Assembly: GCF_003018255.1 (NCBI RefSeq) | Contig: NZ_CP027441.1 | DNA length: 64,000 nt | Strand: one strand, 5' to 3' | Source of the DNA: Escherichia coli | GTDB taxonomy: Bacteria > Pseudomonadota > Gammaproteobacteria > Enterobacterales > Enterobacteriaceae | In this document: positions 18,001 to 21,000 of the stretch, piece by piece | Layout: each line of letters starts with the position of its first letter | Position numbering within the stretch: position 1 is the stretch's first letter | Made by a program: the position numbers

Positions 18001-21000
18001 TCTGCTCAAAGGTCACAGGAGCACCTCCGTTCCATGATGTAAACGTGACACAGCTTATTGTTATTGATTATTATTATCATGCTTTGATTATGTTATCACG
18101 CACCGGTACACGATAACAATAAAGGAGAAACCAGATGAAACTGGATATATCTGTAAAGTATTTACTGAAGAGCCTGATACCAAGCCTCATTATTCTTACA
18201 GTTTTTTATCTGGGATGGAAAGATAGCCAGGAAAATGCAAGAATGTTTTATGCGTTCATCGGATGCATTATCAGTGCCATTACTTTTCCTTTTTCAATGA
18301 GGATAATACAGAAAATGGTAATAAGGTTTACAGGGAAAGAATTCTGGCAAAAAGACTTCTTTACAAATCCAGTTGGCGGAAGCTTAACTGCAATATTTGA
18401 ATTATTCTGTTTCGTTATATCAGTTCCTGTGGTTGCCATTTACTTAATTTTTATATTCTGCAAAGCCCTTTCAGGAAAATGAAAGGGCATCATTATGTGT
18501 CAGATACCAATAAGTTTATTGACCTGCTCAATAAACTTATCATTAACAAACGCACTCACAGCCGCCATAATAATTGCAAAACCCAGAATACCTACAGGGG
18601 TTCCCAGCATGACGGAAAACGTCCATGCTGTAACTGCTGAAGCAGCTCTTCCTGCTGCCAGTGATTCAAGTTTTACAAAAAATGGACGCCAGTTGTCCGT
18701 TTTTACAGCCTTTTGTAACTCCACAGCAACATCATAACGATCAATAACTTTTCCGGTAAAACCAAATGCCTTACTGAACAGCTTAAAATTCTCCGCCATA
18801 TGGACCTGATTAATAGCTTCCAGGGCTTTAGAAATGGCCATGCGATCTTGTATGCTATATTTCTTGTTCAGATTATTACGGAATTTATCAAAAGCGTTCA
18901 GTGCATCATCCACACTCTTAATCTGTTTCCCTTGAGATACAGAAGCCAGCTCCTTAGCAAGTTCGGATGCTTGTTTACCGAACTCATCATATATCGTTCT
19001 GTAGAAATCAGAGGTGAGTTTTATGGCATCCTTTATCATATTTATTTCATCCCTTTTTCTTTTCTCTTCAGCTATTTTCTGATTTATGTCAGCAAGCTGG
19101 CTACGGATATTCTCTTTTTCCTTCAACAGGGCATTAAGAGCATCATTTGCATGCTTTTGTTCATTTGTTCTGGCACTGACGTTATTTCTCGCCGAATTTA
19201 CCGCAGATTCAGCAGAGGTGATTTTATTTCTGGCATCAAGCAATCGTTGCCGTAACTTATCCCATTCAGCAACTTCAGCATTATAAATTTTCTTGTCACC
19301 TTCCACATCCTCTGTCACCACCGGATTCCGGTCATTCAGAATATTGCGTTTATAGTCCAGACCGGAATGGGTCAGAAGATAATTCAGGTTTGCACGGTTA
19401 TCGATGACCGCGCTGGTTGTGATTTTTATCGTACCGGCAAATCTCGGATCACCACTCACAACAATAGAATGATTTGTTGATGAACGCCCCGGGAATTTTT
19501 CAGGGGAAACTATCGTTTTGCCGTCAGGCGTGTTTTTCTGTTGCGTCAGCTGTTGTTCAGCTCTGGTTAATGCATTACGGGCCGTCTTAAGCGATTCCGT
19601 CACCGAACTGAGTTTATTCCGGGCCTCTGAAATGGCCCTGTCATTCCGTGTCTGCTGCCCGAGCAGACGGGCCTGTTGTGCATCAAGAACGGCAAGGGCT
19701 GCCCCGCCATTTTTTTCCAGCTCTGACAACCGCGTGTCCAGAATACCTTTTCTGTGCTCGTATTCAGCAAGCATATCAGCGGCCTTCTTGTCTGCGTTCT
19801 GCGCATCCTTCTGCCGTTTTTCAGCCTGTTCGATTAACGACCTGGCCTCGCGGGGAGATATACGAAGAGAATCAGCATCAGCAAACAGCATCCGGCTCTC
19901 TGTATGCAGCCGGAGGGCATCATATCCGGCGATTTCAGTACGGAATCCGTATTCTCTCAGCTCTGCCTGCAGGAGTCTGAACTCCTGTCGTGTAATATCA
20001 GCGGCATCTGCGTTTCCGGCACGGAGTGTTTTCAGTGTGTTTTCATCTTTTTCCCTTGCAGCAATTGCCGCAGAAAGGCGTTTTCCGGCTTCAGTACGCT
20101 TATTCTCATTCTCTTTCTGCTGCACGCTGAGCGTGTTTTTGTACGCTGTGATTTCCTTGTCCCTTTTTTCGATATCACTTCGGGTTGGGGAATCATCGAC
20201 CCACTCGTTTCCGCCCCAGATGGTTTTGTTCCCGAAGGAACTCCATGCAGGCGGGGTACCATGAAAAACATCGACACGTGGAGGGTTTACATAAATATCA
20301 ACGGCCATAATTTCATGGCCATCTGAATCATACCCCAGCGATTCTGCACCGGGATTTGTAATACGTACAGGGTCAGACATTCGGTATCTCCTTCATCCTC
20401 TGAGGAAAACAAATGAATTAACTGCTTACGTATATGGATACATATACAGTATTAATTTATTAAGGAGAAAATGGCATGTCAAGATTTAATGATAGTGATT
20501 ATCATTAACATGAAGTGGTATTATACCGTTCAGAAAGCCTGCTGACGCTGTGGCAGCATCACAGTCTGGGTATTCTCTGGTGCAATACAAAAACCGGACT
20601 TTCCCGTAACAACAGACAATGTTACGGGAAAAGTTACAGAACTGAGCCACAAAATATCTCAGTACCTGAGATGCATAAAAACACCGTACATATGTTTCTC
20701 AAAAGGGGGATGATCGTTATCCAGCCATTTCGGTGGATCGGTATGCAGAACACCAATCTGCTTCATGCCGGTATGCTGCCTGGATTTTCTCGCGCAGTAA
20801 TCACTGTCTTCATATCCCATCGTTTCGATGACCACTCTGGCCGTCTTTCCGTCAGGAGCCCTTGCTGTGACAATGAAATCCGGCAGGACATATTTCTTTT
20901 CACCATTAACATAAACTTCTGTATCAAACAGGGGCCTTTCCAGACTTAATTCCGGCGTACCAGGCTTTCTTTTAAGCCAGCTGGCCACATTCAGAAGAGC

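Follow-up and report, generated by a model that had tools for sequence, protein, structure and literature searches.

How does one virulence plasmid come to hold a complete colicin Ib system and, 16 kb away, the ruins of a colicin Ia system? We addressed this question for a stretch of 64,000 nucleotides of Escherichia coli DNA (RefSeq assembly GCF_003018255.1, contig NZ_CP027441.1; below, the window), which contains the Ib toxin gene cib beside its immunity gene (locus A, 18135-20380) and the remains of the Ia toxin gene cia beside the Ia immunity gene iia (locus B, 34227-34897). We consider it likely that the window belongs to a mosaic plasmid of the pO113 family, combining an IncFIB and an I-complex replicon, with two non-identical partial backbone copies, one holding a working Ib module and the other a dead Ia module, and that these modules met by plasmid fusion or recombination and not by duplication or replacement. 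The first-pass annotation of this DNA had instead suggested that one toxin/immunity pair replaced the other by recombination in a duplicated flanking module.

The window is part of a virulence plasmid from E. coli strains that produce Shiga toxin (STEC). Both loci are 99.8-100% identical to E. coli plasmids of 158-176 kb, a family that includes pO113 (NC_007365), the ehx virulence plasmid of STEC negative for the enterocyte effacement locus (LEE). Both colicin loci find 100% identical counterparts on database plasmids, and therefore do not represent a chance pattern. The collinear near-identity with pO113 includes the I-type leading region, repFIB and ehx, and PLSDB assigns the matching plasmids to IncFIB plus IncI-gamma/K1, their relaxase to MOBP and their mating-pair formation to MPF_I. 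Along the window, the I-type leading region (ardA, psiAB, ssb) and impCAB are followed by the colicin Ib locus, an island bounded by insertion sequences (IS) with a heme-type TonB receptor, stbB/parM, parA, resD and ccdBA, the decayed Ia locus, and finally traT, repFIB, ehxCABD, sab and lutABC.

The biology of the pO113 family is known, and all elements at both loci belong to kinds already described. The plasmid pO113 has been described as a mosaic with repA(FIB) and repZ (PMC2681110), and its colicin operon has been noted to be 98-100% identical to that of ColIb-P9 (PMC3817090); the text of the paper on the complete pO113 sequence does not mention colicin (PMC2681110). What the present analysis adds is the exact anatomy of the two loci, namely breakpoints, microhomology, two backbone copies and distribution, and a caution for the counting of bacteriocin genes.

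The two colicin loci

Locus A and its control region contain the following features.

18135-18482, plus strand: Ib immunity gene, 115 amino acids (open reading frame (ORF), alignment, PF03526)
18500-20380, minus strand: cib, intact colicin Ib gene, 626 amino acids (ORF, PF11504, PF01024, alignment)
20388-20506, minus strand: cib control region (sequence reading and promoter scan)
20388-20393, minus strand: cib ribosome-binding site AAGGAG (sequence reading)
20421-20451, minus strand: double (two overlapping) LexA-type operator TACTGTATATGTATCCATATACGTAAGCAGT (sequence reading)
20454-20459, minus strand: cib -10 element TAAATT (promoter scan)
20477-20482, minus strand: cib -35 element TTGACA (promoter scan, 10/12 for the cib promoter)
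20488-20506, minus strand: Fur-box-like sequence AATGATAATCACTATCATT upstream of cib (sequence reading)
20659-21353, minus strand: yagA, cut short to its C-terminal 230 codons; 21353 is the last position with homology to ColIb-P9 and pO26_H19_1
21344-21556: N-terminal remnant of an IS21-family transposase, abutting the truncated yagA

The toxin and immunity genes are convergent, with 17 nt between them. The Cib protein comprises an N-terminal translocation region, in which residues 23-27 read EIMAV, a central Cir-binding domain and a pore domain at the C-terminus. It matches the colicin Ia/Ib central domain PF11504 (170.9 bits), the colicin pore-forming domain PF01024 (164.5 bits, residues 440-623) and the R-domain structure 2HDI (E 7.7e-64), and its residues 23-623 align with colicin Ia (1CII), to which they are near-identical up to about residue 440 and divergent beyond. 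The C-terminal part was the stretch on which the first-pass annotation had rested the choice between Ia and Ib, and it matches Ib: residues 432-626 carry 4 substitutions in 195 positions relative to the PDB entry 8iom (‘Colicin Ib’), and residues 446-626 are 97.2% identical to ColIb-P9 and 39% (38.7%) identical to two Ia toxins, compared with 98% for residues 1-445 and the same Ia toxins. The Ib type-specific DNA extends from 18112 to about 19045-19066, that is, from codon ~439-445 to the gene end. In total, Cib differs from its ColIb-P9 counterpart at 8 of 626 residues (98.7% identity) and the immunity protein at 3 of 115 (97.4%). The latter matches PF03526 (33.8 bits, cut-off 25) and is found in exactly this form on at least 1000 contigs. 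The full colicin Ib gene with a convergent immunity gene, as first annotated, is hence confirmed, and by its sequence the pair is an intact and ordinary colicin Ib immunity/toxin pair. As a side observation, the 90%-identity cluster that contains Cib includes many members of 238-531 amino acids named ‘Tn3-like element TnAs1 family transposase’, which are probably mis-named fragments or transposon-truncated colicin genes.

The SOS operator that had been proposed as a candidate was found again as the double LexA-type operator listed above, and the 260-bp cib control region shows 99% column identity with the ColIb-P9 cib promoter and with two cia promoters. Sequence elements of both the LexA (SOS) and the Fur operator type are thus present in the cib promoter. 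Dual repression of cib by Fur and LexA has been reported (PMC3879352), and induction would be expected upon DNA damage combined with iron limitation. For the immunity gene, a candidate promoter GTGACA-18-TATTAT (18045-18074, a consensus match only) lies within the shared flank. The released toxin would enter target cells via CirA and TonB and kill them by forming a pore in the inner membrane, while the producer would be protected by the separately transcribed, convergent immunity protein. At locus A there is neither an ORF nor room for a dedicated lysis gene, the gaps being 17 nt between cib and the immunity gene, 118 nt between the immunity gene and the neighbouring DUF6404 gene, and 278 nt between cib and yagA. 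Group B colicins are described as having no lysis gene, and in Salmonella colicin Ib is released via prophage-mediated lysis (PMC7374059); release from the present host may likewise use other lysis routes, plausibly SOS-induced prophages.

Locus B, including the adjacent transfer operon remnant, consists of the following features.

34227-34559, plus strand: colicin Ia immunity (iia) pseudogene (alignment to intact iia)
34581-34897, minus strand: cia remnant, codons 523-626 plus stop (104 codons); homology to intact cia ends exactly at 34897
34581-34952, minus strand: chimeric ORF, 123 amino acids, in which the first 13 codons of a traT-downstream ORF are fused in frame to cia codons 523-626
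34890-34897: joint between cia and the traT flank, with 34897 as the last position of the cia side and 34890 as the first of the traT-flank side (three-way comparison)
34898-35011, minus strand: 5' fragment of a small ORF, located after traT in F-type plasmids, and the spacer to traT (comparison with L008, an intact F-type transfer operon)
35012-35743, minus strand: traT, 243 amino acids, an isolated remnant of an F-type transfer operon (98.2% identical to traT of L008)

The sequence of locus B is of the Ia type, with 96.8% nucleotide identity to the Ia module of plasmid pRM7190-2. None of the parts of an Ia system is complete. In place of an intact 111-amino-acid immunity gene, the window has an iia with a nonsense change at codon 59 (AAA to TAA, K59*, 34401-34403) and with two deletions, one of 1 bp at 34431/34432 and one of 2 bp at 34542/34543. 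The first-pass annotation was right that this gene is decayed, while the single frameshift that it mentioned understates the damage. Likewise, the statement that only the last ~100 codons of cia are left holds (codons 523-626, with the stop codon at 34581-34583), except that homology ends at 34897 and not at 34889. The remnant represents the distal half of the pore-forming domain (PF01024 positions 92-184 only), with 94 of 102 residues identical to colicin Ia 1CII (8 substitutions). The translocation and receptor domains of the 626-amino-acid Ia toxin are gone. The 5' end of cia and its SOS/Fur promoter have been deleted as well, and sequence from the traT flank stands in their place.

The iia lesions were compared in three members of the family that carry the dead Ia locus. 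The plasmid pRM10042-2 shares K59* and the 1-bp deletion with the window and has, in addition, a scrambled 5' end with a 4-bp deletion; the 2-bp deletion belongs to the list for the window. The CP024291 allele lacks K59* and has its own early 1-bp frameshift. Since the lesions differ among family members, the immunity gene seems to have undergone progressive and partly independent decay after toxin loss. Two further observations concern this gene. About 14 substitutions within ~90 bp (34369-34460) are present in the window and in pRM10042-2, and are missing from the CP024291 allele; this patch could reflect gene conversion from a divergent immunity allele or a cluster of mutations. In NZ_CP024291.1 (6490-6795), iia keeps a 101-amino-acid open frame from a GTG codon that covers all but the first ~10 residues, and in that group it may have remained functional, as an orphan immunity gene against Ia.

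The joint between cia and traT

The breakpoint of cia is a joint to the traT flank and not a homologous crossover. The motif TTTCAC(A/T)G, a microhomology of ~6 bp, is common to the cia side and the traT-flank side, and the three-way comparison found no IS end at the joint. Judged from these features, the joint bears the signature of illegitimate, microhomology-mediated joining. From 34890 on, the sequence matches, with 98% identity, what lies just downstream of traT in L008, where the F-type order is traG-traS-traT-small ORF-ORF-traD-traI. A traG-like fragment of ~180 bp at 36130-36309, upstream of traT, reflects further erosion of the F transfer operon.

The following course of events would account for the joint. 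By an illegitimate join at the ~6-bp microhomology, cia codon 523 became linked to sequence from just downstream of an F-type traT, and in the simplest route this was a single deletion of ~15.5 kb in a plasmid ordered cia-exo-yacBA-repFII-finO-traX-traI-traD-traT. Such a deletion would have removed the cia promoter and 522 codons, leaving a useless Ia immunity gene that then presumably decayed by separate point lesions in different descendants. This order exists: in CP088425, iia on the plus strand is followed by cia, exo, yacBA, repFII, finO, traX, traI, traD and traT, with cia to traT on one strand, and a CP088425-like order minus ~15.5 kb gives exactly the arrangement and orientation of the window.

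The joint is widely shared. With 34780-35080 as query, the identical joint was found in 42 PLSDB plasmids of 106-176 kb and in 52 of 5,426 complete RefSeq E. coli genomes, in which it is annotated as ‘colicin-like pore-forming protein’. It is also present in all 24 plasmids that share the whole of 15221-22000. More informative is pRM10042-2 (IncFIA/FIB/FIC, 109 kb), with the order resD-ccdBA-flank-dead iia-cia remnant-traT-repFIB-ehx. Its full sequence has no match to window positions 18130-21353, that is, neither cib nor the Ib immunity gene. As the joint is present on this plasmid, the dead Ia block exists without cib, and it appears to travel with traT, repFIB and ehx.

An alternative reading takes the distal half of the Ia pore domain as a product that is expressed and under selection, for example a small inner-membrane, membrane-active or protective protein, which might modulate sensitivity to pore-forming colicins or membrane physiology. 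The 104 cia codons are open in both diverged allele groups and thus in every joint-bearing lineage examined; the 123-amino-acid product occurs on at least 1000 contigs; and the remnant ORF is on the strand of traT, 24-60 nt downstream of it, with the fusion in frame in the window. Between the allele groups there are 6 synonymous and 4 non-synonymous differences in the remnant (pN/pS ~0.22), but these counts are tiny (3-11 differences) and gene conversion from an intact cia could import differences. Moreover, no activity is known for half a pore domain without import domains, the cognate immunity gene is itself dead, and the in-frame fusion is not conserved, being out of frame in the CP024291 allele group; this difference in frame led us to reject a selected chimera of the traT-downstream ORF and cia. 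Altogether, we regard a selected function of the remnant as very improbable.

Flanks, backbone copies and exchange at the Ib site

The flanking and backbone features around the two loci are the following.

14004-14996 and 14858-15274: overlapping ORFs of a split impB (Y-family polymerase)
15104-15220: impB 3' part of backbone copy 1, 98.3% identical to 27760-27876 (117 bp; self-blast)
16833-18111: left flank of the Ib module, with the 3' part of an 86-amino-acid-type ORF, a 196-amino-acid ORF and a DUF6404 gene
17059-17649, plus strand: 196-amino-acid ORF of this flank
17669-18016, minus strand: DUF6404 gene of this flank (PF19942 match)
27760-32290, minus strand: backbone copy 2, with ColIb-P9-type synteny; last ~175 nt of impB, stbB (27935-28351), parM, a hypothetical gene, parA, resD (30958-31764), ccdB and ccdA (32072-32290)
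32917-34193: left flank of the Ia module, with an 86-amino-acid ORF, a 196-amino-acid ORF and a DUF6404 gene
32886-33146: 86-amino-acid ORF of this flank
33143-33733, plus strand: 196-amino-acid ORF of this flank
33751-34098, minus strand: DUF6404 gene of this flank

By blastn, the two loci resemble each other in the left flank of 1.28 kb only (16833-18111 versus 32917-34193, ~96%, precisely 95.9%); beyond it, no similarity was found at E 1e-5. Thus, the colicin N-terminal sequence that the first-pass annotation took to be shared between the two loci is not there: the Ia remnant holds only type-specific C-terminal codons and nothing N-terminal that could recombine. The flanks are direct repeats, 16 kb apart and 3.9-4.1% diverged. 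The flank of locus B has its nearest relatives in the locus-B copies of pRM10042-2 and CP024291 (97.6-97.9%, versus 96.1% to the flank of locus A), and the flank of locus A is 97.0% identical to the copies in ColIb-P9 and pCE0026f2. These three genes (86-amino-acid ORF, 196-amino-acid ORF and DUF6404 membrane protein) accompany every colicin Ia/Ib module that we examined on IncI1, IncK2/Z and IncF plasmids, with ~96-97% identity; the 196-amino-acid ORF matches no Pfam or NCBIfam family.

Each module also stands in its own I-complex backbone synteny. The order in ColIb-P9 is repZ-yacAB-exo-...-yagA-cib-imm-flank-...-resD-parA-hyp-parM-stbB-impBAC-leading region, where hyp denotes a hypothetical gene and imm the immunity gene. 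The dead Ia module occupies the ColIb-P9-type colicin position, after stbB-parM-parA-resD, and the segment from the impB 3' stub to resD (27760-31690) is 98.3% identical to ColIb-P9 (20391->16462). The Ib module has the order impCAB-parA'-hyp-flank-imm-cib-yagA, an order that ordinary I-complex plasmids such as pO26_H19_1 (IncK2/Z) have in intact form; the truncated yagA marks the right-hand end of this native backbone segment. Other parts of the window compare to ColIb-P9 with 93-97% identity (1-15220, leading region to impB), 98.5% (16833-21353, flank, immunity gene, cib and half of yagA) and 94% (32683-34193, flank of locus B). The two backbone types diverge directly after 15220, where ColIb-P9 homology stops, and 27760 is the start of the second copy. 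The direct repeat of 117 bp (15104-15220 and 27760-27876) is the homologous part of two impB 3' ends, both within impB of the comparison sequence L014, and the impB stub of copy 2 is cut by an IS66 end at 27761. In addition, the impB of copy 1 is split into the two overlapping ORFs listed above and is intact in pRM7190-2 and pO26_H19_1; in the window it is probably a frameshifted pseudogene.

We propose, from this synteny, that copy 1 (impCAB-parA'-hyp-three-gene flank-Ib immunity-cib-truncated yagA) is native to IncK/Z-like plasmids and would supply the working Ib system, and that copy 2 (impB 3' stub-stbB-parM-parA-resD-ccdBA-three-gene flank-Ia immunity-cia) once held the Ia system. Two other assignments were rejected. 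An I-derived Ib module beside an F-derived Ia module does not fit, because ColIb-P9 shows stbB-parM-parA-resD to be I-type backbone. A simple cointegrate through one crossover in the flank or in the 117-bp impB repeat does not fit either, since in both intervals between the repeats I-type genes are mixed with accessory or F-type ones, and the order of the ColIb-P9-like pieces is permuted; no model with a single crossover was found that yields the structure.

The repeats invite the further explanation that one colicin I module with its flank was duplicated in situ, and that one copy then diverged or was converted to the other type and decayed; both the flanks and the 117-bp impB repeat are indeed in direct orientation. 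However, the flanks are as far apart as those on unrelated plasmids and each has closer relatives elsewhere, so that neither is the nearest relative of the other; the backbone genes next to them are of different kinds (parA'-hyp versus stbB-parM-parA-resD-ccdBA); and each colicin module occurs alone on other plasmids. In-situ duplication therefore has a very low probability in our judgement.

A true exchange of Ia for Ib can be seen, but at locus A only and between sibling plasmids. In pRM7190-2 (NZ_CP015246, E. coli O91), an intact Ia immunity gene and Ia toxin occupy the site where the window has Ib, next to the same truncated-yagA/IS21 joint, and homology to the window stops at 18111 and resumes at 19046 (colicin codon 445). 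As Ia and Ib toxins share residues 1-445, promoter and left flank, a cassette exchange is possible in principle, and these facts speak for the replacement of an Ia pair by Ib through the flanking module and the shared N-terminus, with the decayed Ia locus as the displaced copy. The mismatch density between the two plasmids is nevertheless 2-3.5% everywhere left of ~20570 and 0.3-0.4% right of it, which indicates that the colicin type changed together with at least 11 kb of exchanged backbone and not by a neat cassette swap; one crossover would lie between the colicin promoter and the yagA 3' end. Replacement is also not borne out by locus B, which lies 16 kb away in the second backbone copy, retains its own flank and its own Ia immunity gene, and lost its toxin through the join to the traT flank at TTTCAC and not through a crossover in the shared flank. 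Finally, the same dead joint occurs on pRM10042-2, which has no cib at all. We hence find the replacement of one pair by the other improbable as a physical event, although, in a loose functional sense, the plasmid would now have Ib where part of its ancestry made Ia.

Several points weigh against the preferred reading, in which separately acquired modules met by plasmid fusion or recombination. The absence of cib was directly checked in one joint-bearing plasmid (pRM10042-2), and joint-bearing plasmids without cib could be deletion derivatives of a pO113-type ancestor and not earlier forms. The two joint-bearing allele groups differ by 2-4%, which implies that either the joint is old or recombination took place later. 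The identities among the flanks span a narrow range (96.1% versus 97.0-97.9%), so that lineages are weakly assigned when the flank alone is used. An intact cia in the resD-ccdBA context was found on no plasmid, so that the ancestor of the single deletion is a reconstruction, and an illegitimate join between two plasmids would give the same product.

The remaining contents of the window were noted in passing. The island between the IS21-family remnant (21344-21556) and an IS66 element (25256-27761) encodes a TonB-dependent receptor (22053-24026) and a DUF4198 protein (24045-24836), and this pair is flanked by imperfect direct repeats of ~170 bp (21784-21959 and 24842-25010, 83%). The receptor was considered as a CirA-like colicin receptor or decoy and rejected: it is of the heme/hemoglobin type (TIGR01785, 419 bits), and it scores 68 bits with the CirA model versus a cut-off of 745. 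An L-lactate utilization cluster, lutABC plus permease (~59150-64000), is found on the same virulence plasmid as ehxCABD, the autotransporter adhesin gene sab and an OmpA-family gene (~40500-53900), and also on pRM10042-2 and pRM7190-2. The leading region contains internal direct repeats (1111-1608/7269-7768, 88%; 2297-2649/9042-9394, 94%) with matching copies in ColIb-P9. A scan of the entire window at Rfam gathering thresholds detected no RNA family. Antisense-RNA control elements are normally expected on a plasmid backbone, and they may lie outside the window.

Implications and comparison with known systems

The state of the two loci leads to predictions for the host. From gene content, pO113-type STEC should make colicin Ib and have immunity to it, but lack protection against colicin Ia. 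By analogy with Salmonella, the liberation of colicin Ib in STEC may be coupled to SOS-induced prophage lysis, and hence to the release of Shiga toxin. For genome surveys, the 104-123-amino-acid entries named ‘colicin’ or ‘colicin-like pore-forming protein’ in ~1% of complete E. coli genomes represent one shared dead fragment that should not be counted as a bacteriocin. The cia-traT joint and the truncated-yagA/IS21 joint provide handy markers for tracing the assembly of ehx virulence plasmids from I-complex and F-type parts. On a small scale, the family also illustrates from nature how the loss of a toxin is followed by independent decay of the immunity gene left behind, which bears on the debate about selection for orphan immunity (PMC12546727).

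Among known systems, pO113 (NC_007365) and the related ehx plasmids of LEE-negative STEC show no material difference from the window, which is a member of their family. The cib/imm systems of ColIb-P9 (NC_002122) and Salmonella pCol1B9 agree with the window in the gene pair, its orientation and spacing, the Fur/LexA promoter, the three-gene left flank and a yagA on the promoter side. In contrast to ColIb-P9, the yagA of the window is cut by the IS21 remnant at 21353, and the neighbour of its Ib module is parA'-hyp, as in IncK2/Z plasmids, and not DUF4238...resD. The sibling pRM7190-2 shares the order impCAB-parA'-hyp-flank-[immunity/colicin]-truncated yagA/IS21-heme receptor island, with an island that is 99.7% identical; unlike the window, it is not among the plasmids with the cia-traT joint. 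The IncF ColV/ColIa plasmid pF16EC0267-4 (CP088425) has the same flank-iia-cia module and serves as the structural model for the deletion ancestor, but its left context is a ColV region in place of resD-ccdBA, and its traT and flank belong to another allele (81.6% identity).

On clusters of plasmids, truncated bacteriocin genes held in common and immunity genes that are orphaned or decayed have been reported (PMC12546727), as has, for an E. coli isolate from a feedlot, a ‘truncated remnant of cia lacking iia’ (PMC6723558). The window resembles these cases in that one identical toxin truncation is found on many distinct plasmids. It differs from them in that its immunity gene is dead as well, which fits toxin loss followed by immunity decay and not a maintained orphan immunity.

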